This document shows positions 2,850 through 64,000 of a stretch of DNA of 64,000 nt, in pieces. The notes under the pieces are model-generated. The model was not told where the DNA came from, searched no databases, and worked only from the letters and a program-made list of their open reading frames with translations. Source of the stretch: an uncultured Bacteroidota bacterium (GTDB lineage: Bacteria > Bacteroidota > Ignavibacteria > Kryptoniales > JAKASW01); NCBI GenBank assembly GCA_963806435.1, contig CAWEBD010000157.1:26809-90808 (forward strand), given 5' to 3'. A program made the translations under genes and the position numbers. Every line of letters begins with the position of its first letter. The first letter of the stretch is position 1.

Positions 2850-3869
2850 ATGTCTAAGATTGCACAGAGGATATTTGTCGTAATGTCGGTTTTGCTGCTG
2901 TCGGGATTATCCGTCCGCGCGCAGCAGTACACTATCAAGTTTGCCACTGTCGCGCCGGAAGGAAGCACGTGGATGAACGTGATGAAGGAGTACGACGCCG
3001 CGGTGCGAAAGGAGAGCGGCGGGAGGCTGGGCTTTAAGTTCTACGCGGGCGGGATCGCGGGCGACGAGAAGGATGTACTCAGGAAGATCAGGATCGGACA
3101 ATACCAAGCCGCCGGATTCACCGGAGTCGGTATGGGCGAAATCGCGCCGGAAGAGCGGATTCTGGATACTCCATTCCTCTTCCACGATACCTCCGAGATC
3201 AATTACATCTATGATAAATTTACCCCCCAGTTCAGCCAGGCGTTCGAGCAGGGAGGTTTCGTATTCCTCGGGTGGGCAGAAGTCGGATTTGTCTACGTCT
3301 TCACTCAGAAGCCAATCTATTCCGTGCAGGACATGAAGAACGTCAAGGCGTGGATGTGGGAAGGCGACCCTATCGCCGAAGTGTCGTTTAAGGTTCTCCA
3401 TCTTTCTCCTATCCCGCTGTCGGTAATGGACGTCAACTCCGCGCTCCAGACCGGGATGATCAATTGCGTCTACTCGCCGCCTCTGGCGATGATCGCACTT
3501 CAATGGTTCACGAAAGTGAAATATATGCTTGATGTCCCTCTCGCGAATTCGTCCGGGGCGGCTCTTATCTCCAGAAGATATTTCGATTCCATGCCGCCGG
3601 ATCTTCAGCAAATTCTTGTCAAGAACGGCCAGATTTACATGAAGAAGCTGACGGAGTTGAGCCGGAAGGACAACGTCAAGGCTATCAAGACCATGGAAGG
3701 GGAAGGCATAACAGTTACTCGCCCTCGCTCGAAAAGCGAACTGGCTTACTATTACCAGACCGGCGAAGAGGCGCGTCAGATGCTCGTCGGGAAATTGTAC
3801 TCGGCCGACCTCCTGCATCAAGTTGAAGCGGCGCTTGACCAGTTTCGCAAGGAGCACCCCGGAAAGTGA
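2850..3869 (+). CDS. TRAP transporter substrate-binding protein (DctP family)
   Basis: Signal peptide MSKIAQRIFVVMSVLLLSGLSVRAQ followed by a DctP-like body. Start moved to the ATG at 2850 inside the 2820 ORF. Confidence 0.85.
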   Translation: MSKIAQRIFVVMSVLLLSGLSVRAQQYTIKFATVAPEGSTWMNVMKEYDAAVRKESGGRLGFKFYAGGIAGDEKDVLRKIRIGQYQAAGFTGVGMGEIAPEERILDTPFLFHDTSEINYIYDKFTPQFSQAFEQGGFVFLGWAEVGFVYVFTQKPIYSVQDMKNVKAWMWEGDPIAEVSFKVLHLSPIPLSVMDVNSALQTGMINCVYSPPLAMIALQWFTKVKYMLDVPLANSSGAALISRRYFDSMPPDLQQILVKNGQIYMKKLTELSRKDNVKAIKTMEGEGITVTRPRSKSELAYYYQTGEEARQMLVGKLYSADLLHQVEAALDQFRKEHPGK

Positions 3870-4456: not shown

Positions 4457-5734
4457 ATGTCGTACGTCGTCATTGGCATCGCGATTCTCCTGCTCGTCCT
4501 GCTGGGCGAGCCTGTCTTCATACTCATAGGGGCGGGCGGGCTTCTCCTTTTCAAATCCATCGGCGTTGACACATCAGCCGTGATCGTGGAGCTGTACCGA
4601 CTCGCGAGCCTGCCGGCGCTTATAGCGATACCGCTCTTCACATTCGCCGGATATATACTGGCGGAAAGCAACGCCCCAAAGAGGCTCGTGCGTCTCGCCC
4701 AGGCTTTCTTCGGCTGGATGCCCGGCGGACTTGCCATAGTCTCGATAATATCCACGGCTATCTTCACCGCGTTTACGGGTGCGTCCGGCGTGACCATCGT
4801 TGCACTTGGAGGTTTGCTCTATCCCGTCCTGGTTAAGGAGTCGTATCCGGAAAGATTCGCGACCGGGCTGATGACGACATCAGGAAGCCTCGGACTCCTC
4901 TTTCCGCCGAGCCTGCCGATCATCCTATACGGAATTGTCGCAGGGATAAGCGTCGACAAGCTGTTCGCCGCGGGTGTGATACCCGGCATACTCCTGATTG
5001 TTATGCTATCCGCGTACAGCATTTACACCGGCATTCGTGCGGGGGTGAAACGTCAGGCGTTTTCGTTCCGAGAGGCCTTCGGGGCGCTCAAGGAAGGCGT
5101 CTGGGAGATACCGCTTCCCATCATTATTATCGGTGGCATCTACGCCGGCTATTTCACGGCGACGGAAGCGAGCGCGATCATGGCATTCTACGTCCTCGTC
5201 GTAGAAGTCTTCGTGCTCCGCGACGTCAAGTTCTTCAAGGACCTTCCCGGGATCACCAGGAAGAGCATGATGCTCGTCGGCGCCATCTTCGTCGTGCTGG
5301 GGACCGCGCTCGGTCTGACGAACTATCTCATCGACCAGCAAATCCCGATGCAGATGTTCCAGCTCATCCATCGCTTCGTTTCGAGTCAGCTCGTCTTCCT
5401 CATCCTGCTGAACCTCTTTCTCCTTGTCATAAATATGGTCGAAATATTCTCGGCTATTATAATCGTCGTACCTCTGATAGTGCCGATCGCGATGCAGTAC
5501 GGCATCAATCCTGTTCACCTTGGTGTGATCTTTCTGCTGAACCTGGAAATCGGATACATGCTGCCGCCATTAGGATTGAACTTATTCATATCGAGTTTGC
5601 GTTTTGAAAAAGACATAGTGAAGATATACAGGGCTGTGCTGCCGTTTCTGGCCATAGCGCTGCTCGCGTTGTTTATCGTCACTTATTTGCCGGACCTGAG
5701 CTTATATTTGACAAGAATATTGAAGGTACAATAG
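4457..5734 (+). CDS. TRAP transporter large permease (DctM family)
   Basis: 425 aa polytopic membrane protein of typical DctM length and composition. Last gene of the TRAP unit. Confidence 0.9.
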   Translation: MSYVVIGIAILLLVLLGEPVFILIGAGGLLLFKSIGVDTSAVIVELYRLASLPALIAIPLFTFAGYILAESNAPKRLVRLAQAFFGWMPGGLAIVSIISTAIFTAFTGASGVTIVALGGLLYPVLVKESYPERFATGLMTTSGSLGLLFPPSLPIILYGIVAGISVDKLFAAGVIPGILLIVMLSAYSIYTGIRAGVKRQAFSFREAFGALKEGVWEIPLPIIIIGGIYAGYFTATEASAIMAFYVLVVEVFVLRDVKFFKDLPGITRKSMMLVGAIFVVLGTALGLTNYLIDQQIPMQMFQLIHRFVSSQLVFLILLNLFLLVINMVEIFSAIIIVVPLIVPIAMQYGINPVHLGVIFLLNLEIGYMLPPLGLNLFISSLRFEKDIVKIYRAVLPFLAIALLALFIVTYLPDLSLYLTRILKVQ

Positions 5735-56322: not shown

Positions 56323-57678
56323 ATGGCCGAGATACTGAATGCGCTTGTCGTCGACGATGAAAAAAACGTATCGGACCTTCTAAAGCTCCAGCTTGACGAC
56401 GTAGGATACTCGGTAGACGTAGCCAACGACGGCGCGGTAGGCATCAACAAGATCCAGGCGAAGCGGTACGACGTAATACTGCTCGACCTCAAGATGCCGC
56501 GGATAAACGGGTTAGAAGTCTTAAAATTCGCCAAAGAAAACCAACCGGATGCGCAGGTACTCATACTGACCGGATACGGCGACATCAAGACTGCCGTCGA
56601 CACGATCAAGATGGGCGCCTTCGATTTCATCACCAAGCCGTACAACTTCGACGAGCTCCTCGTTTCCCTGAAGAACGCGATGGAGATGCGCCGTCTTATC
56701 GTGGACAACAAGGTCATGAAGATGCAGCTCGGCGAAGGGAAATTCGAGCTAGTCGGGCAGAGTCCCGCCCTCCAGAAAGTCGTGGAAATCGCGCTGAAGG
56801 TCGCGCCGAGCGACGCGTCGGTTATGATCACCGGCCCGAGCGGATCCGGCAAAGAGCTGATAGCTCACCTGATACACGAGAACAGCGAGCGGGCGAAGAA
56901 GCCGTTCGTCGCTCTCAACTGCGCTTCGATCCCGGACACACTCATCGAGAGCGAGCTGTTCGGACATGAGAAGGGGGCGTTCACTGATGCGCATATACTG
57001 AAGCAGGGCCTTGCCGAGATTGCGGAAGGCGGTACACTCTTCCTCGACGAGGTCGGCGACATCAGTCACCTCGTACAGCCCAAGCTCCTGCGCTTCATAG
57101 AGACGGGAACCTTCCGCCGCGTCGGCGGGACCGTCGAGATGGGCGTGAACGTCCGCATACTCTCCGCGACGAACAAGGACCTCGAGCGTGAAGCGGAAGA
57201 GGGGAAGTTCCGTGAAGATTTACTTTACCGCCTGAACGTCGTCCACGTCGAAGTCCCGCCGCTGGGCCAGCGCAGGGAAGACATACCGCTCCTAGTGGAA
57301 CACTTCCTCCAGAAGAAGCAGCGCACGCACCGGGCGAAGAAGATATCTAAAGAGGCATTGAAGATGCTGACGGAGTACGACTGGCCCGGTAACATACGCG
57401 AGCTCGAGAACGTGATCGAGAGGGCGGCAATACTAGCGACGGGAGACGAGATAACTCCTGAATTCATCGCGCTTACATCGAAATCCAAATCGACCGATCT
57501 CCGCAGGATATCTACGCGCCTTTCGCTCGCGGAGCTCGAGAAGATACACATCGAGAATGTCCTGAAGGCTAACGGCTTCAACCGCAATAAGTCTGCGAAG
57601 GCTTTGGGTATAAGCCTTAAGACGCTTTACCTCAAGATCAAACACTACGATATAGAGACACCCGCCGGTAAGGGTTAA
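56323..57678 (+). CDS. sigma54-dependent response regulator (NtrC family)
   Basis: REC, an AAA+ domain (GPSGSGKE, GAFTDA variant of GAFTGA), and a C-terminal Fis-type HTH. Confidence 0.9.
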   Translation: MAEILNALVVDDEKNVSDLLKLQLDDVGYSVDVANDGAVGINKIQAKRYDVILLDLKMPRINGLEVLKFAKENQPDAQVLILTGYGDIKTAVDTIKMGAFDFITKPYNFDELLVSLKNAMEMRRLIVDNKVMKMQLGEGKFELVGQSPALQKVVEIALKVAPSDASVMITGPSGSGKELIAHLIHENSERAKKPFVALNCASIPDTLIESELFGHEKGAFTDAHILKQGLAEIAEGGTLFLDEVGDISHLVQPKLLRFIETGTFRRVGGTVEMGVNVRILSATNKDLEREAEEGKFREDLLYRLNVVHVEVPPLGQRREDIPLLVEHFLQKKQRTHRAKKISKEALKMLTEYDWPGNIRELENVIERAAILATGDEITPEFIALTSKSKSTDLRRISTRLSLAELEKIHIENVLKANGFNRNKSAKALGISLKTLYLKIKHYDIETPAGKG

Positions 57679-57687
57679 TTCCCCTAT

Positions 57688-58476
57688 CTACCTGAAATAA
57701 ACACTCAGCCCGAACATCACACTAGCTGGATAGAACTGCCAGGTATGTGAGCTGCCATGGCTCGAAGAGGTCGAAGGAACCAGTTTCCCGTTCCTTAGAA
57801 TATCGTAGGCGTAGCCGGAAGTGTAATTTGATTCGCTGTAGGTCAGGTTAAGCCCGTATTGCGCGTGGATTGACACAAACTTCCATACAAAACACTCGAC
57901 CCCTGCCATCGCGGACACGCCTGCGTTCCATGATGTAGAGTTTTGATTCGGACTGCTCGGATAGTCAATATATACTGTGGAGTCAGCCGGGACCGGAAGC
58001 GCAGGCGTATAATTGGTGTTGTACCTCGACCGTGAATAACCGATCGTCGGCCCCGCGCCGATATAGAAATTTACGTCCGCGTCCGGGTTTGGGTAATACA
58101 CGTACTGGAGGTTGACCTGGATGCTGCCGCCGTTAGAGGCACCCGTCTGTGAATTGCCATAAGTCAGTGTATCACCTAGGTTGTATTGAGTTGAACCGCT
58201 GGTGCTCTGATCTGAAAGTGACCCGCCGATGCCGAGTTGGATTGCCTCGTGGCTGTTAAGTTGTCGCTTGATTGACAGGGCAGAGCCCTGAAACGAGGTG
58301 AGCGAAAAGTTATAGCCGATTCCAAACTCCAGGGCCCAGGTGTCGGGCAGGAGAGAATTCCTTGGAGTACCGGAACTGTCCGGCCCGGATTCTCGAGCGA
58401 ATGCACTGCCATGGCTCAGAAAGAATGCGAAAGAGAACGCAAAAACAAAAGCGCAAAAAGACATCATCTTCTTCAT
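57688..58476 (-). CDS. outer-membrane beta-barrel protein
   Basis: Signal peptide MKKMMSFCAFVFAFSFAFFLSHGSAFA, alternating beta pattern, and aromatic-rich C-terminus ...FGLSVYFR. Confidence 0.65.
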   Translation of the reverse strand: MKKMMSFCAFVFAFSFAFFLSHGSAFARESGPDSSGTPRNSLLPDTWALEFGIGYNFSLTSFQGSALSIKRQLNSHEAIQLGIGGSLSDQSTSGSTQYNLGDTLTYGNSQTGASNGGSIQVNLQYVYYPNPDADVNFYIGAGPTIGYSRSRYNTNYTPALPVPADSTVYIDYPSSPNQNSTSWNAGVSAMAGVECFVWKFVSIHAQYGLNLTYSESNYTSGYAYDILRNGKLVPSTSSSHGSSHTWQFYPASVMFGLSVYFR

Positions 58477-58658
58477 ATTATCCCACCTTCCGACCCCGGT
58501 TTCCGTCATTAAGAGATGTTCCTCAGTGCCGGAACACCCGAAGTTCATTGGTTTTACATTATGTCCCCGTGTCAAACGACTTCGTGAATATACATGGGTT
58601 TCGCTGAAAATTCAAAGGTCAGAGGAAAGACTCGAATGGGCGACGGCTCATATCCGGA

Positions 58659-58793
58659 TCAAGGATGTGTTGGAAGCAGAACCGCTTCGCGGAAGTTATC
58701 GACGAAGGTGAGCGTGCGATCATTCTCCAGGCGTCCTATGGAAAGCCTAATCGCGTTCGATCCCACGTCAATAGCGGCTAGTGTTGTTGGCAT
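58659..58793 (-). pseudogene. N-terminal remnant of an exopolyphosphatase (Ppx/GppA family) gene
   Basis: My translation gives MPTTLAAIDVGSNAIRLSIGRLENDRTLTFVDNFREAVLLPTHP*, matching the Ppx/GppA phosphate-1 motif AAIDxGSNsxrL. It stops after 44 codons and no remainder of the gene follows. Confidence 0.5.
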
Positions 58794-58834
58794 CTCAGAA
58801 AAAAATAAGCCCTGCGGTACACTTAGTCAAACGA

Positions 58835-58845
58835 TGCCGCGGATA
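58835..58845. repeat. left copy of flanking direct repeat TGCCGCGGATA
   Basis: An identical 11-mer occurs at 60282-60292, on the other side of the IS. Confidence 0.7.
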
Positions 58846-58846
58846 G

Positions 58847-58875
58847 GCGTAACAATTCTCGGTTGGTAAAATTGG
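58847..58875 (+). repeat. IS left terminal inverted repeat
   Basis: GCGTAACAATTCTCGGTTGGTAAAATTGG versus the reverse complement of the right end, GCGTATCAATCTGCGGTTGGTGATTTTGG. Confidence 0.7.
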
Positions 58876-58942
58876 CATAAGTTGCTGAAATGATTGGAGA
58901 TGCCGAGATTATCCGGTTCACGAACCGGATAACGGAGGCATT

Positions 58943-59224
58943 TTGAAAAGAGAACCGAGAAAGAGACGCCGGATGAGATGTCCAAGTTGTGGAAGTCTTG
59001 AGACGATTCGATATGGAAAGAGGATGATCAGACCTGGGAGCATGGACGGCCACAGCAACCGCGAGGTACAGAAATACTGTTGCAAGAAGTGCAACGGGGT
59101 GTTCAGTCTCCGAGTGGATAAGGGAAAGAAGTGCCGCTCAATTATGATATATGGGAATGCGGCATGGCGCAAGGCGCTCATATGGATTCAATTTCAAGAC
59201 GGAGCTGGTGAAGATGCACGTTGA
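58943..59224 (+). CDS. IS ORF1: zinc-ribbon protein
   Basis: CPSCGS...CCKKCNG. TTG start at 58943 after GGAGG; an ATG at 58973 is an alternative. Confidence 0.6.
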   Translation: MKREPRKRRRMRCPSCGSLETIRYGKRMIRPGSMDGHSNREVQKYCCKKCNGVFSLRVDKGKKCRSIMIYGNAAWRKALIWIQFQDGAGEDAR

Positions 59225-60272
59225 AGAGAGGATGAGCTATCGGGTAATGTCAAAGAGACTGAAGGAGAAATTCGGTCTGAGTATAACGCCATGGTATCTG
59301 TGCAAGATGGTCAACGAGGTGGCACAGATGAGCAAAAGCAGCATCGAGATAACTCGCCAGTTCAACCCGGTCTGGGACGGATTCCTCGCGGTCGACGATA
59401 AGTACATCAGAGTCCGCGGGAAAAGATATCTATGCTTGGTGGCGGTAGACACCACAGGCGATCCGGTTCACCTGGAGCTCATCGAGGAACCGAACCAGGA
59501 GGCATACGATAACTTCTTCAGATATCTGGTGGATCACATCGGCTACAGGGTCCGGGCAATAACAACGGACTTGGATCCTATGCTGGACAATGCAGTGAAA
59601 AGCGTGTTTGGCGGCCAGATTTTGCACCAAAAGTGCATCTGGCACGCCTTGGAGATCGTCAAGGGGCACATAGACTATCAGAAAATCCGTCAGAACTATC
59701 TGCGGCTCAGAAAGAAGTGCGACAATCTCTCCGCCAGCTTGGAAGAAAAGAAGACATACTACCACTCAACCCTTGAGAAGCTTCAGAGTATGAAGTCGGA
59801 CTTGGCACTTCTCGAGGAAGAATATTTGGCGAAGGAAAAAGTCCTCACCGATATCCGTGAGATCTTCAAGAACAACACCAACAGCGAGGTCACTAAGGAG
59901 CTCAAGGTTATCAAAAGACGCTATAGGACCAAGTACCCGAAGGTCGTCTCCTTCCTGACTGACAATCTGGACGGGCTTACCACCTACACCATCAATCAAC
60001 GTATACCGAAAACAAACATCATGGCCGAGAACTTCAACAGGCAACTTCAGAGGAGACTCAAGACCATTGAGGCCTTCCAGACCTTCTCCACAGCTTTCAA
60101 CTATCTCAACATGATCAGAAATTACCTTCGCTTTAAACCCTTCACCGACTGCAAAAGAGAAAGGAGATATCGAAACGGTTTCGCTCCAATCGAGTTGTGC
60201 AAAGTCAAATTGGCCTCTCGCGATTGGATTAAAAACTCCATAAATTTACCAAAATCACCAACCGCAGATTGA
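59151..60272 (+). CDS. IS ORF2: DDE-type transposase
   Basis: HTH-like N-terminus, then AVDDKYIRVRGKRYLCLVAVD...AITTDLDPML...HQKCIWHAL. Lies in the +1 frame relative to ORF1, with a 74-nt overlap. Confidence 0.8.
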   Translation: MGMRHGARRSYGFNFKTELVKMHVEERMSYRVMSKRLKEKFGLSITPWYLCKMVNEVAQMSKSSIEITRQFNPVWDGFLAVDDKYIRVRGKRYLCLVAVDTTGDPVHLELIEEPNQEAYDNFFRYLVDHIGYRVRAITTDLDPMLDNAVKSVFGGQILHQKCIWHALEIVKGHIDYQKIRQNYLRLRKKCDNLSASLEEKKTYYHSTLEKLQSMKSDLALLEEEYLAKEKVLTDIREIFKNNTNSEVTKELKVIKRRYRTKYPKVVSFLTDNLDGLTTYTINQRIPKTNIMAENFNRQLQRRLKTIEAFQTFSTAFNYLNMIRNYLRFKPFTDCKRERRYRNGFAPIELCKVKLASRDWIKNSINLPKSPTAD

Positions 60273-60277
60273 TACGC
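60249..60277 (-). repeat. IS right terminal inverted repeat
   Basis: See the left inverted repeat. Confidence 0.7.
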
Positions 60278-60281
60278 TTAC

Positions 60282-60292
60282 TGCCGCGGATA
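60282..60292. repeat. right copy of flanking direct repeat TGCCGCGGATA
   Basis: Identical to 58835-58845. Also forms half of the hairpin GCCGCGG-atac-CCGCGGC. Confidence 0.7.
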
Positions 60293-60300
60293 CCCGCGGC
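60283..60300 (-). terminator. GC hairpin immediately downstream of the TPR gene
   Basis: GCCGCGG/CCGCGGC 7-bp stem, 3 nt after the stop codon. No clear U tract. Confidence 0.3.
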
Positions 60301-60303
60301 ATG

Positions 60304-61311
60304 TTACCGTATTCCCAACCCGTCGAGACGTTCCCGCGCGCGGTGGACAAGTTCGGGCCGGCTTCCCGCGTTCACAACCCATTGGTATTCCCTTGCGGCA
60401 TTGCGGAAATCGTTTGCCCGCTCGTAGAGCCCCCCGAGCGCGAAGTGTGCCGACACGGAGAGCGGAGGCGTTATATTACGATCGATCATCTCGTTACACG
60501 TCAGAATCGCTTCGTTTAACTTGCCGGATTTCTCGTAACAGGAAGCCAGGCGGAGATAAATCTTTCCGAGGTACATCGAGTCCGCCGGGGTGAGGTGGAG
60601 AATTTCCGACGCCCTGATCGCGTTCCTGCATTCCAGCGCCTCCTGGTCGTAGCATTGCGCATCCATCAATACCCAGGTAAGCTTGTCATAGTAGTGAAGT
60701 GCCGCGTCGGGGAATTCAGAGATTAGCCTGTGATACATGATCCTGACAGAATCGGGCTTGTCCTCTCTCCCGTAGAACTCGCCGAGGATGTCTTCAGCCT
60801 CGTATCTCACGAGAGATCCCTTCTCGCGCACGAGATAGAGATATTCGTACGCCTTCTCCTTCGATCCGCTCTTGCCGAGAATGAAGAGAAGCGGCCTGAG
60901 GTACCACGGGAGGAAGCCGGTGTAGTAGTTGAACAAGGCGAGACTGAAATATGCATCGTAGCGATCAGGGCATAGTTCAAGCAGCTCCTTGTGATATGTA
61001 AGTCCCTTGCTGCCGTCAGACGCGGCCTTGAACTCGTTGCCTTTTGCTGCATCGAGTTTTGCGAGATAACCAAGGGCGAAACCTGTATAGAACAGGGCGA
61101 CAGTGTCTCGTGGATTTTTTGCCAGGATACTCTCACCCCTCTCAATCACTGCCGACAGCGATTCCATGAACCGGCTCTCAACTTCGCGGGCATCGACCAT
61201 CGCGCTGTCCAGGTAGATCATCTCCTGCCAGAGGACGACGGAGCGGAAGAACTCCCACTTGAGTGAGTCCGGCTCTGCTTCGGCGAAACTCGCTAAACTG
61301 TCCATCGCCAC
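60304..61311 (-). CDS. tetratricopeptide repeat protein
   Basis: Repeated TPR-like helices (ALFYTGFALGYLAKLD, AHFALGGLYERANDFRNAAREY). The frame stays open upstream and encodes a signal-peptide-like segment that has no canonical start codon. Confidence 0.75.
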   Translation of the reverse strand: MAMDSLASFAEAEPDSLKWEFFRSVVLWQEMIYLDSAMVDAREVESRFMESLSAVIERGESILAKNPRDTVALFYTGFALGYLAKLDAAKGNEFKAASDGSKGLTYHKELLELCPDRYDAYFSLALFNYYTGFLPWYLRPLLFILGKSGSKEKAYEYLYLVREKGSLVRYEAEDILGEFYGREDKPDSVRIMYHRLISEFPDAALHYYDKLTWVLMDAQCYDQEALECRNAIRASEILHLTPADSMYLGKIYLRLASCYEKSGKLNEAILTCNEMIDRNITPPLSVSAHFALGGLYERANDFRNAAREYQWVVNAGSRPELVHRARERLDGLGIR

Positions 61312-61475
61312 ATGGAACCGGCAGTCATAAGTCAGTCTTACGATTTCTTCCGTGTGGGAACCTGCGAGTCTGGTGCGGTGTGCAAGTGCAGGGGCCGGCA
61401 GGAGGAGCGCCGCGAGAGCGAGGAATGACAGAATCTGCAGCGAGGAGAAGTTGTCACCCCGACCCGTAGCACTGT

Positions 61476-61757
61476 TTAAGATTTCTGGTGTCTCCTGACG
61501 CGGCTCCAGGGGAACGGTATTTCAGATTCGACAACTTTGCCGAAGTCCGCGCAGCAGAAGTCGGTGATTTCCCAGTTTGAATCGTCGTAATCTATGTTTA
61601 CCAGCATTGTTGCGTAAGCGCTGGTCCCGTGGTTAGGGCAGCCAAGCGATGTCAGCGCGCCGTTCAATACATCCCTGAAACGCTCGAACATCGGAGGCTG
61701 CAAACCGGTGTTCGGGTCGACATAATTCTTGCCGTCTTTGAAAATGAGTTTGACCAT
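61476..61757 (-). CDS. small Cys/His protein, paralogue 1 of 3 (93 aa)
   Basis: ATG at 61757 preceded by GGGAGGAGAC. Shares the C40-x2-H43...W62-E63...C68-C69 motif with the two upstream ORFs. Confidence 0.65.
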   Translation of the reverse strand: MVKLIFKDGKNYVDPNTGLQPPMFERFRDVLNGALTSLGCPNHGTSAYATMLVNIDYDDSNWEITDFCCADFGKVVESEIPFPWSRVRRHQKS

Positions 61758-61839
61758 GTCTCCTCCCTGTTTCCTCAATTCGGTCTTTCAAGTTATCTCG
61801 GGGAGTTTAACTTTGAGTTCAGTTCATGTTATTTTCTTG

Positions 61840-62121
61840 CTACGGTAGATCGATGTGTTTTGAGCGATCCAGCGGGTACGGGATGGCTCGCTCAAGCATC
61901 GCGTGGAATACTCCGCAGCATGATGAAATGATTTCCCATGTGAAATCGGAATTATCCGAATTTATGAGGATTGTGGCAGAGAAGTCGCGCGGATGAATCG
62001 CGCAAGATAAGTTCATGACTGCCTTACCGATCCGGTACGCCACCTTCCGGAGCATCGAAGTGTTTGAGAGAGTCTCCGGCTTCAACGTTTCGCTGCCGTT
62101 CCGTAATTCGAGTTTTATCAT
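61840..62121 (-). CDS. small Cys/His protein, paralogue 2 of 3 (93 aa)
   Basis: Gapless alignment to paralogue 1 with the same length and the same invariant residues. Weak ribosome-binding site. Confidence 0.6.
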   Translation of the reverse strand: MIKLELRNGSETLKPETLSNTSMLRKVAYRIGKAVMNLSCAIHPRDFSATILINSDNSDFTWEIISSCCGVFHAMLERAIPYPLDRSKHIDLP

Positions 62122-62332
62122 GATTGCTGGGCATCTCTTTCGATTAAGCGTTTCACATGGGTCTCAGGTTTGCAGTCCCCGCCTGACAAGCTGCCCTTCA
62201 ATCAGGCGGGTCAGCCGGGAGGCATATACACGCGTCCAACGTGCACCCGATCCCGGCAGCGAGCGCCAATAGGGGAAGCACAAATACAAGTTAACGATTT
62301 ACCGTTAAGTCAATCCTTCGGAAGTATTAAAT

Positions 62333-62665
62333 TCATGTGTCCGGTGTTTCATGCTTTCCTGTGTTTGCGGGCGGATCCGTCTCTTGCGGCGCGAAATATT
62401 TCCGGGATTCATTCGCCTGTGGCGGGACCGATGATTCAATCGCGCGTTTGTATTCTCTGCAGCACGCATTGATCACTTCCCATTTATAACCCGAGTAGAA
62501 GCCGGTCAGTAGTATCGTGGCGCTTGAATTGAACTCATGGTTCGGGCAGCGAAGTGAACTTGTGGCGGACTCAATGTCGACTTTCAGTTTAACGAGCACT
62601 GAGACCTGCAGGGGGACGTCGGCGTCTCTACTTTGCTGTGGTACGCGGAAGATGAATGTGATCAC
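62333..62665 (-). CDS. small Cys/His protein, paralogue 3 of 3 (110 aa, Pro/Thr-rich tail)
   Basis: GTG start preceded by AGAGGAGG. Same invariant residues at the same positions. Confidence 0.6.
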   Translation of the reverse strand: MITFIFRVPQQSRDADVPLQVSVLVKLKVDIESATSSLRCPNHEFNSSATILLTGFYSGYKWEVINACCREYKRAIESSVPPQANESRKYFAPQETDPPANTGKHETPDT

Positions 62666-62870
62666 TTAAGTTGTCCTCCTCTGATATCCGTTGACTTTCA
62701 ATTTTCCGCATTAAGATACTATCAGTCTGTTAACCAATGACTACGTGCAGGTTAATTTTTCGGGAGGAGGCATAAAAACTGGTGCCTCGCAAGGTACGAA
62801 ACGCAAAAGTCCGGCAGAAATTGACAGTCTGAGATTAACCCGCCCTTGACGGGTTTATTGTCCTAAGAAC

Positions 62871-63067
62871 TCCTGCGGGGGATGGCTTCCAGGCGGACAG
62901 GCTCCACCGGGAGGCTCATCTCGGGGGATGAAGTCGCGCGGCCTCGCGTCCCGGTTCAATCCATCCTCGTATCGACACTCCGCGGTGATGCGAGATGTGC
63001 CTTGCCCGCGATCAAAGGCCCTACCCCCGCCAGGCGAGGTAAACACCGAACGGGTAGAGCCGCCGGG
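62871..63067. other. GC-rich non-coding block with long-range complementarity (candidate structured RNA, class unknown)
   Basis: No protein-like ORF; the ORFs here are Arg/Pro/Gly-rich. Helices checked by hand: GGGGATGG 62878-62885 with CCATCCTC 62961-62968, and GGCCCTACCC 63017-63026 with GGGTAGAGCC 63052-63061. Confidence 0.25.
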
Positions 63068-63120
63068 AAAACAAAAAGAAACGGAGCCGCAGCCACCTTC
63101 CCGGCAGGCCGCCAGCCCCG
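63068..63120 (-). terminator. intrinsic terminator of pstS
   Basis: On the minus strand, a GC-rich imperfect 13-bp stem (CGGGGCTGGCGGCC...GGTGGCTGCGGCTCCG) is followed by TTTCTTTTTGTTTT, 20 nt after the pstS stop. Confidence 0.6.
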
Positions 63121-63140
63121 CATGCCGATCGAATCTTTCG

Positions 63141-64000
63141 TTACTTCAGAATACTCTTGCCTTCGTATTCCACAGTCTTCAGCTTGGCGATATCGAGCTC
63201 CTGGATCTGTTTCGGAAGTGGTGCGTAGTCAAGGTCTGCGGAATATTTCTGCCCTTCCGTCACTGCCCATTGCATGAATTCAAGCATCGCCTTCGCTTGC
63301 GCATAATTCGTTTGATGCCTGTAAACCAGGAGCCACGTCGCGCTTGAGATCGGGTAAGACTCTTTGCCCGGCGCGTCAACTATGGAGAACCTTAGGTCGG
63401 AAGGAAGCGTCTTTGCCGCGTTGGCGAGCGCCGCTGTAACACCGGGTATGGACGCACACACAAAAACACCGGCGGCATTCTTCAAGTCGGCGAAAGACAT
63501 GTTATTCTGGAGAGCGTAGATGAGTTCGACGTACCCTATCGCACCCGGGGTGCGGGCGACCTGTCCCGAGACTCCATCGTTTCCCTTTCCGCCGATCCCG
63601 ACGGGCCAGTTGAGGCTTGTCGACTTGCCGACCTTTTCACTCCATTCGGAGCTGACTTTGGAAAGGTAGTCTGCAAAAATATATGTTGTGCCGCTCCCGT
63701 CAGCACGGTGGACGACGATGATCCTTGTGCCGGGGAAATCAACTCCTGGATTGAGTGCTTTGATCCTTGGATCGCCCCAAGACGTAATCTTTCCCATATA
63801 GATGTCGGCAATCGTGGTTCCGTCGAATTTCAATGTCTGGCTCACGCCCGGTATGTTGTACACGACGACTACCGCCCCGAGTGTCTCCGGTATGTGGAGA
63901 ACCTCGCCGTGCGCCTTTTTCGCGTCCGCGAGCTGCTCCTCGGTCAGGGGGGCGTCGCTGGCTCCGAAGTCAACCGTTCCAGCGACGAGCTGTCTTATGC
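63141..64000 (-). CDS. pstS: phosphate ABC transporter substrate-binding protein PstS, N-terminal end beyond window edge
   Basis: The frame is open to the window end, with ...GTVDFGASDAPLTEEQ...VVVVYNIPGV... upstream of the track ORF. Confidence 0.9.
   Translation of the reverse strand, partial: IRQLVAGTVDFGASDAPLTEEQLADAKKAHGEVLHIPETLGAVVVVYNIPGVSQTLKFDGTTIADIYMGKITSWGDPRIKALNPGVDFPGTRIIVVHRADGSGTTYIFADYLSKVSSEWSEKVGKSTSLNWPVGIGGKGNDGVSGQVARTPGAIGYVELIYALQNNMSFADLKNAAGVFVCASIPGVTAALANAAKTLPSDLRFSIVDAPGKESYPISSATWLLVYRHQTNYAQAKAMLEFMQWAVTEGQKYSADLDYAPLPKQIQELDIAKLKTVEYEGKSILK

Follow-up and report, generated by a model that had tools for sequence, protein, structure and literature searches.

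In this study, we found that three small tandem genes on the minus strand of a 64,000-nucleotide stretch of contig CAWEBD010000157.1 (GenBank assembly GCA_963806435.1; the whole stretch is referred to as the window) from an uncultured Bacteroidota bacterium of the Kryptoniales are native members of a conserved phosphate-uptake/polyphosphate locus of Kryptoniota. The genes, designated here par3, par2, and par1, encode members of a rare, unannotated family of cytoplasmic proteins of ~80-100 residues that is present in Kryptoniota and in a few other bacteria of the Fibrobacteres-Chlorobi-Bacteroidetes (FCB) group. All three proteins carry a Cys-x2-His...Cys-Cys signature, which is probably a metal-binding site as judged from its conservation, and Pho control of their genes is a reasonable inference from the upstream DNA. 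To our knowledge, Kryptoniota is a candidate phylum known only from metagenomes, and the switching of PPK and PPX and the relay of Pst status are incompletely understood even in model bacteria. At its most modest, this is a clear case for defining a new protein family, marked by the motif C-[P]-x-H ... D-x-C-C-x-[DE]-[FY], by recurrent tandem paralogues, and by a conserved cis-element.

Three paralogues with a conserved Cys/His signature

The first gene of the array, par3 (62333..62665), starts with GTG and encodes a protein of 110 aa with a CPNH...CC signature and a Pro/Thr-rich tail. It is followed by par2 (61840..62121; 93 aa, CAIH...CC) and, at the end of the array, by par1 (61476..61757; 93 aa from ATG, CPNH...CC), which has a conserved C-terminal tail. 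In the mechanical list of open reading frames (ORFs) par1 extends to a TTG at 61778, and the ATG was taken as its start because all orthologues begin with MVKL and a Shine-Dalgarno sequence, GGGAGGAG, lies immediately 5' of it. In aligned upstream regions, the GTG of par3 occupies the position of ATG in the orthologues. The Shine-Dalgarno sequence is strong at par3 (GAGGAGG) and par1 (GGGAGGAG), and weak at par2. MAFFT aligned the three proteins over 93 columns without a gap, with 30% (par2) and 27% (par3) identity to par1 and with M1, A34, L38, C40, H43, A49, T50, L52, W62, E63, C68, C69, E77, and P81 invariant in all three. Tblastn between the paralogues gave E values of 1e-8 to 1e-13, so their likeness reflects homology rather than chance. 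The proteins have no N-terminal hydrophobic segment, a negative hydropathy average (GRAVY), and a near-neutral or acidic pI of 5.5-7.8. An earlier reading of the DNA letters without database searches (the sequence-only reading) had counted by hand 29/93 and 24/93 residues shared with par1, close to the measured identities. Its description of three gapless minus-strand paralogues of ~93 aa, two of exactly 93 codons and one with a Pro/Thr-rich tail, two with strong Shine-Dalgarno sequences, and none with a signal peptide was borne out, and every invariant residue that it listed was reproduced in the MAFFT alignment.

The par genes are real genes under purifying selection, and they are anciently diverged paralogues. 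In comparison with the orthologues of L001, L007, and L003 (L numbers denote loci and P numbers denote family proteins), par1 has a ratio of nonsynonymous to synonymous substitution rates (dN/dS) of 0.07-0.18. The corresponding ratio of proportions (pN/pS) is 0.38-0.54 for par3 and 0.48 for par2, and since synonymous sites are saturated in these comparisons, the true ratio lies below 0.38-0.54. Constraint on par1 is much stronger than that on par2 and par3. The same three genes are present in L011, a Logan contig from an independent assembly, with 3 of 3749 bases different from the window, and two public proteins are identical to those of the window (P0013 to par3 and P0014 to par2). Orthologues of par2 with 46-48% identity were found in L023 (P0018) and L024, each immediately after a par3-type gene. 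The tail of par1 has the motif (I/M)PFPW(S/N)..RRHQKS, and residues 79-93 are more conserved than the folded core (0.89 vs 0.74 in top-residue frequency among 15 orthologues).

Conservation of the signature was counted in a family alignment of 57 sequences. C40 is kept in all 57, H43 in 51, C68 in 54, and C69 in 55 of them; among other positions, F/Y72 is kept in 55, T50 in 48, and W62 in 35. Two members have Asp in place of H43. In P0069 and P0070, the first half-site reads C-P-R-C-G and the second C-H, a reciprocal His/Cys swap that keeps the Cys3His inventory, and this is the behaviour expected of four residues jointly binding one metal. Degenerate cases are limited to the weakest-scoring members of the family. 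The four residues would most probably form a single Cys3His site for structural Zn(II), their clustering being argued from predicted topology only. The sequence-only reading had taken the Cys/His set to argue for a metal, Fe-S, or redox site and had named its loss in homologues as counter-evidence; in the 57-sequence alignment the set is retained in distant homologues, the ligand swap included. A heme-regulatory Cys-Pro motif was considered and rejected, as Pro41 is present in just 30 of the 57 members and the motif leaves C68 and C69 (54-55/57) unexplained.

Two AlphaFold2 runs, with input alignments of 17 and 57 sequences, gave an identical beta-beta-alpha-beta-beta-alpha topology with predicted local distance difference test (pLDDT) values of 80.4 and 82.1. 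The predicted elements are strands at 2-8 and 11-13, a helix at 22-35/36, strands at 49-54 and 61-67, and a helix at 70-78, in agreement with the small alpha+beta fold anticipated by the sequence-only reading. Residues 40 and 44 appear as isolated bridges flanking a knuckle-like turn, and the C68-C69 pair connects strand 4 to helix 2, immediately before the helix. The C40/H43 turn and the Cys pair would lie at the same end of the domain. The C-terminal tail is of low confidence, with pLDDT <50 at 85-93 in the first model and at 90-93 in the second. With significance set at E<1e-3 and a template-modelling (TM) score >0.5, Foldseek found no match to either model in the PDB (best E 0.42 and 0.59, TM<=0.38), nor to the first model in BFVD (best E 0.34).

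As the sequence-only reading had been unable to name a family, so none was matched by profile or single-sequence searches. Against Pfam and NCBIfam, the best E values of par1-3 were 0.026-0.2, far short of gathering or curated cut-offs, and all 57 members gave three scattered single-member matches with E>=0.002. Isolated single-member matches with E>=0.0018 were all that PADLOC and PHROGs gave for the family members, and two profiles and three single sequences found nothing below E 0.19 among PDB sequences. A word-indexed search of 5.8 billion clusters returned 16 family clusters, and an exhaustive hidden Markov model search of 1.84 billion representative proteins returned 55 relatives with E<1e-3, 25 of them below 1e-10. 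A further word-indexed protein search with a broad profile added almost no new members. Degenerate-pattern scans of genome and metagenome contigs found only 3 and 1 loci, because conservation is sufficient for such patterns only in the par1 N-terminus. The relatives are 78-190 aa long, nearly all 80-104 aa, and are labelled 'hypothetical protein' wherever their source names them. The named sources are Candidatus Kryptonia/Kryptoniota, 'Bacteroidota' metagenome-assembled genomes (MAGs), and one cultured member of the Flavobacteriaceae, Seonamhaeicola sp. ML3. We found no description of the family in the literature on polyphosphate in Kryptonia/Kryptoniota and on small proteins of ppx/CHAD operons. 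Three longer members (P0036, P0045, and P0046) were examined as domain fusions and rejected; neither Pfam nor PDB gave a match to their extensions, two of which resemble low-complexity read-through.

A phosphate locus with Pho-box-like repeats

The gene order in the window is pstS - par3 - par2 - par1 - TPR - IS - ppx remnant - OMP - response regulator, where TPR stands for a tetratricopeptide repeat protein, IS for an insertion sequence, and OMP for an outer-membrane protein. In relatives, the overall order is pstS - par3 - (par2) - par1 - (TPR) - ppx - CHAD - sixA - ppk. It is seen as pstS - par3 - par1 - ppx - CHAD - His_Phos_1 (sixA-like) - ppk in L001, and as porin-like - pstS - pstS - par3 - par1 - ppx - CHAD - sixA - ppk in L013. 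L007, L008, L009, and L014 have pstS remnant - par3 - par1 - TPR - ppx - CHAD - sixA - ppk, and the Kryptonia loci L003-6 have TPR - ppx - ppk - par1 - pstC - pstA - pstB. L023 consists of pstS - par3 - par2 - OMP - sigma54 response regulator, and L024 of PCC - par3-like - par2-like. Thus pstS and par3 are adjacent in five contig lineages (window/L011, L001, the L007 type with its pstS remnant, L013, and L023). The gene par1 immediately precedes ppx or TPR-ppx in L001, L007, and L013, and in L003 it sits between ppk and pstCAB. The tandem arrays are made up of two or three orthogroups, and a par3-type gene comes first in every array.

The sequence-only reading had placed the three genes in an accessory-looking part of the window. 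Their synteny with relatives does not agree with this: this corner of the window is a phosphate locus, and the impression of an accessory island, which came from the neighbouring IS insertion, is hereby corrected. Its broader proposal of an undescribed system survives in part, in that the family is unnamed and the Cys/His set is kept, but the accessory system with a TPR partner is not supported.

In the L007-type lineage, pstS is cut to an 80-aa C-terminal remnant (L007 6996-7238; likewise L008, L009, and L014). Despite this reduction of pstS, these loci retain an intact par3 promoter block and an intact par3-par1-TPR-ppx operon.

The conserved upstream DNA comprises the last ~90 nt before par3, a putative promoter/operator block (62666..62760, minus strand) that is shared by seven upstream regions from different lineages. 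In the window, TTAACC-N16-GGTTAACA at 62755-62728 is followed, after 9 nt, by TATCTT at 62718-62713 and then by the Shine-Dalgarno sequence GAGGAGG at 62681-62675; the TATCTT position reads TAnnTT in 7/7 aligned upstream regions. The generalized pattern TTAAY-N17-TTAAYA has 14 matches in 158 kb of loci, compared with 1.6 in shuffles. Eleven of the 14 matches (8 sites, with both strands counted) are located just 5' of family genes, and the other three, all from the AT-rich L017, do not lie upstream of the family member there. The pattern also precedes members that are far from phosphate genes (L015, L018, and L024).

A related, 11-bp-phased element, TTMAC-N6-TTAAC, is located 5' of pstS in L001 and of both pstS copies in L013, 5' of ppk in L001 and L003, 5' of pstC in L003, and 5' of the phosphate-porin-like gene of L013. 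These TT(C/A)AC...TTAAC repeats lie at 1-27 and 5348-5363 in L001, at 3710-3736 and 6073-6100 in L013, and at 5264-5280 and 8370-8396 in L003. We know of no earlier description of Pho boxes in Kryptoniota. A PHO box has been defined as a pair of 11-nt direct repeat units (PMC4415409); the TTAAC repeats fit this definition, which makes them good candidate Pho boxes for Kryptoniota. Considering the shared TTAAC hexamer together with the position in the locus, it is reasonable to suppose that the par genes may be induced with the phosphate-starvation regulon.

A terminator hairpin with a T-run (63072..63121, minus strand), read from the sequence as CGGGGCTGGCGGC...GCTGCGGCTCCG TTTCTTTTT, separates pstS from the par transcription unit, and a comparable hairpin follows one pstS copy in L013. 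The spacer upstream of par3 (62666-63140) is 475 bp long, in keeping with the ~470 bp of non-coding DNA including a GC-rich block that the sequence-only reading described. The GC-rich stretch (62-65%; 62860-63140) lies between pstS and the par3 promoter and is found only in the window and L011. Relatives have no counterpart of it, it is not repeated in the window, and its folding z is +0.57; being strain-specific, unrepeated, and without excess folding energy, it was discounted as functional DNA, the pstS terminator excepted. Rfam models scanned over 57000-64000 yielded no match with E<=1.

In the 211-bp spacer upstream of par2, at 62290-62308 (minus strand), two TTAAC hexamers lie 14 nt apart and are followed by TAACTT. 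These may be a secondary promoter/operator for par2, which has no strong Shine-Dalgarno sequence.

L013, which comes from a Kryptoniota MAG, also encodes a third, more divergent family member (MVNLILKEGNRHVDP type) at 1671-1961. This gene adjoins one for a radical-SAM protein and is 2 kb away from the phosphate cluster, upstream of its porin-like gene; a near-copy of the CATTCGTTAATAGA promoter element precedes it.

Possible role and competing explanations

The par family would work most like a treble-clef or zinc-knuckle finger, although membership of a family of this kind cannot be demonstrated. As in these fingers, C-P-x-[HC]-G would supply ligands 1 and 2, the set is Cys3His, the domain is small, and in the models a beta-hairpin (49-54/61-67 in par) is followed by a helix (70-78) near the last ligands; the tight CxxC/H turn by which a treble-clef knuckle is recognized is present as C40-P-x-H43-G. 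Unlike par, in which the adjacent C68-C69 precede the helix, treble-clef fingers usually have ligands 3 and 4 as C-x2-C in the first turn of the helix, and they lack the extra N-terminal beta-hairpin and helix that make par a predicted four-stranded alpha+beta domain. No significant Foldseek or sequence match to solved zinc fingers was obtained. The vicinal Cys pair is shared with ArsD-type sites, and the inventory of three Cys and one His with the [2Fe-2S] proteins of the CDGSH/mitoNEET type, but both differ from par in motif spacing and predicted fold and gave no sequence match.

Known proteins from phosphate loci offer partial parallels as well. PhnA/YjdM is a small cytoplasmic Cys-rich zinc-ribbon protein of unassigned function, encoded among phosphate-starvation genes. 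It is similar to par in size, Cys content, and phosphate-gene setting, whereas its ligands are two CxxC pairs and its domain architecture is different; PhnA and zinc-ribbon Pfam models gave no par match at E<=10. PhoU is a metal-binding accessory regulator that is encoded, like par, beside pst genes, and modulation of phosphate signalling is conceivable for par as well, but PhoU is an all-helical protein of ~230 aa with E/DxxxD metal motifs, and the PhoU models of Pfam and NCBIfam gave no par match even at E<=10. In L003, pstCAB directly follows the 93-aa gene, and the first gene called beyond pstB encodes a Peptidase_M1 protein, not a phoU-like one, at this locus; such a pstCAB order without an adjoining phoU-like gene is suggestive. 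The CHAD proteins, or phosins, are polyphosphate-binding proteins encoded in ppx-ppk operons (PMC6537752). Like par, CHAD is an operon partner of ppx and ppk in Kryptoniota, but it is large, helical, basic, and His-rich, whereas par is small, alpha+beta, and near-neutral or acidic except for the basic RRHQKS tail of par1.

In the explanation that we favour, to which we give about an even chance of being right, the par proteins would be Pho-controlled, Zn-binding Cys3His accessory or regulatory proteins of phosphate/polyphosphate homeostasis that act together. Each paralogue would fold as beta-hairpin/helix/beta-hairpin/helix, with the C-P-x-H(G) knuckle turn and C68/C69 forming one treble-clef-like Cys3His site. 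Just downstream of pstS, the genes would have a promoter of their own, in which TTAAY-N17-TTAAYA would be built from the same TTAAC hexamer as the Pho-box-like repeats, and the ancestral operon would run on into (TPR)-ppx-CHAD-sixA-ppk. The two or three paralogues would work jointly as small accessory or regulatory subunits, and the conserved, probably unstructured C-terminal tail of par1 would bind a partner. Joint action and partner binding are suggested by the fixed order of orthogroups in the arrays, by the stronger constraint on par1, and by its conserved low-confidence tail, since low prediction confidence combined with conservation above that of the core is typical of a short linear docking motif. 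The data show that the genes are real and under purifying selection, and that the ligand set, the synteny, and the cis-element are conserved, with a fold topology that is predicted; which metal is bound, control by Pho, hetero-oligomerisation, and the target are what we infer. If this explanation is true, a small, structurally unmatched metal-binding domain would be new among the components of phosphate/polyphosphate homeostasis, and a small metalloprotein at the head of a ppx-ppk operon would be a candidate regulator.

Several points weigh against it. Ligation of one Zn by two adjacent Cys is unusual. The TTAAC units of the par3 element are 22 bp apart (2 x 11) rather than 11 and overlap the promoter, and none of the family members has a domain fusion that would hint at a partner. 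Distant members occur in unrelated contexts, P0023 by yidC/dnaA, P0021 by sugar-nucleotide genes, and P0057 of Seonamhaeicola amid hypothetical and restriction-modification genes near a helix-turn-helix (HTH)/methylase pair, so the family overall is not tied to phosphate genes. In addition, the window and L023 keep par genes without ppx, CHAD, sixA, and ppk, which are thus not needed in cis.

The proteins might instead be general small Zn-finger-like binders of nucleic acid or protein, whose adjacency to pstS and ppx is synteny inherited within one phylum. We consider this rather unlikely, although it accounts for the distant members in unrelated neighbourhoods and for the persistence of par genes where ppx-ppk has been lost. 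The phosphate-linked cases, moreover, all come from one clade and are not independent, and the occurrence of TTAAY-N17-TTAAYA away from phosphate genes at L015, L018, and L024 could suit a family-specific regulator rather than PhoB. What passive synteny does not lead one to expect is an adjacency that outlives rearrangements (pstCAB/ppk in L003, pstS in L023, and the pstS remnant in L007); the TTAAC hexamer is also shared with bona fide Pho-type genes, and the pI of 5.5-7.8 is untypical of nucleic-acid binders. Nor does a bolder proposal seem likely, in which the par proteins, made from a Pho-type promoter, would be a new component of phosphate signalling, namely hetero-oligomeric Cys3His metal or Fe-S/redox sensors of new fold that directly tune Pst/PhoR or PPX/PPK in Kryptoniota in a PhoU-like or polyphosphate-switch role; the importance of the family would rise if such a regulatory role were true.

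Other explanations concern the chemistry of the site. An Fe-S cluster or a thiol/Zn redox switch formed by the same residues, which would couple oxidative or iron status to polyphosphate metabolism, is in our view unlikely. The first half-site resembles a classical zinc knuckle (CPxH-G; CPRCG in P0069), the examined loci have no genes for Fe-S assembly or redox functions nearby, and no Fe-S family of Pfam or NCBIfam was matched by sequence. On the other hand, three Cys and one His are conserved, with 3Cys-1His [2Fe-2S] and [4Fe-4S] sites and the tandem-Cys ligation of cluster N2 of complex I as precedents, and vicinal Cys typify clusters and reactive or soft-metal sites more than they do structural Zn. 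Polyphosphate has a known link with oxidative stress, and the weak Foldseek neighbours include an Fe-S Cas4 protein, at a non-significant E>0.4. A vicinal Cys pair with a third Cys is also the classical geometry for As(III), as in the S3 sites of ArsD and ArsR, and the par genes adjoin phosphate-uptake genes; a chaperone or buffer for As(III), Sb(III), Hg(II), or Cu(I), which would guard cells that import arsenate via induced Pst, could be imagined on this basis. It is very unlikely, however, given that the His is nearly as conserved as the Cys and is swapped for Cys or Asp, as fits a four-ligand site for a hard or borderline metal, that no ars, mer, or cop genes are present in the examined neighbourhoods, and that no likeness to the ArsD/ArsR models of Pfam and NCBIfam was found. 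The idea of mobile-element cargo, or of a defence or toxin-antitoxin-like module, draws on the IS 1.2 kb downstream of the par genes and on the Seonamhaeicola homologue near the HTH/methylase gene pair. It is already largely refuted by synteny, as the par genes are syntenic across lineages without the IS, and we regard it as extremely improbable; the IS, bounded by inverted repeats of its own, is a simple insertion into the TPR-ppx spacer, and matches to PADLOC and PHROG are single-member only with E>1e-3.

Neighbouring genes in the window

Upstream of the array, the 3' part of pstS (63141..64000, minus strand) encodes a phosphate-binding protein (Pfam PBP_like_2, E=1.7e-31) that is 85% identical to PstS of L001; the gene runs past the window edge. 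Downstream, the next gene on the same strand is the TPR gene, as the sequence-only reading stated. It encodes a predicted secreted protein (60304..61509, minus strand; Pfam TPR_14/TPR_17) and overlaps the 3' end of par1 by 34 nt, with 401 aa aligned to the TPR protein of L007 by tblastn (61509 to 60313). The orthologues begin with a signal peptide, which in L003 reads MRKIMMVVMSCVSLLCL...; in the window it reads ILSFLALAALLLPAPALA|HRT. The frame is open from 61521 (stop at 61524-61522) with no ATG, GTG, or TTG before the signal peptide, as is also the case in L011, and the ATG of the L007 gene aligns with a CTG at 61509. Either the gene has a non-canonical start overlapping par1, or its start has been lost, or only a cytoplasmic form is made from GTG 61311.

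The sequence-only reading had raised the question of whether the TPR protein is a constant partner of the small proteins, and it is not. L001, L013, L023, L024, and all distant contexts lack its gene, which in L003 adjoins ppx rather than the small gene, and its product carries a signal peptide while the par proteins have none. For the same reasons, namely the signal peptides of the orthologues and the frequent absence of the gene, TPR was rejected as the binding partner of the par1 tail.

The IS (58844..60280, plus strand; Pfam DDE_Tnp_IS240, Transposase_mut, and MULE) separates TPR from ppx, having entered their spacer by simple insertion. It is 1.44 kb long, has imperfect terminal inverted repeats of 32 nt (58844-58875 and 60249-60280), and encodes a DDE Mutator-type transposase (59151-60272), and the L011 contig ends at its edge. 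An upstream overlapping ORF (58943-59224) encodes a 93-aa zinc-finger protein (CPSCG...CCKKC); this was tried as a relative of par and rejected as unrelated, with an hhalign probability of 0.6%.

Beyond the IS, the first ~40 codons of ppx remain (58674..58793, minus strand), with 77.5% identity over 40 aa to Ppx of L001 by tblastn, and no tblastn match to CHAD, SixA, or PPK was found anywhere in the 64-kb window. This points to decay of the polyphosphate operon in the window lineage, and the accessory look of the region is attributable to the IS insertion and the decay of ppx-ppk rather than to foreign origin. The OMP gene (57688-58575) and the gene for the sigma54-type response regulator (56323-57678) have syntenic counterparts in L023, in which pstS-par3-par2 borders on the same OMP as in the window.

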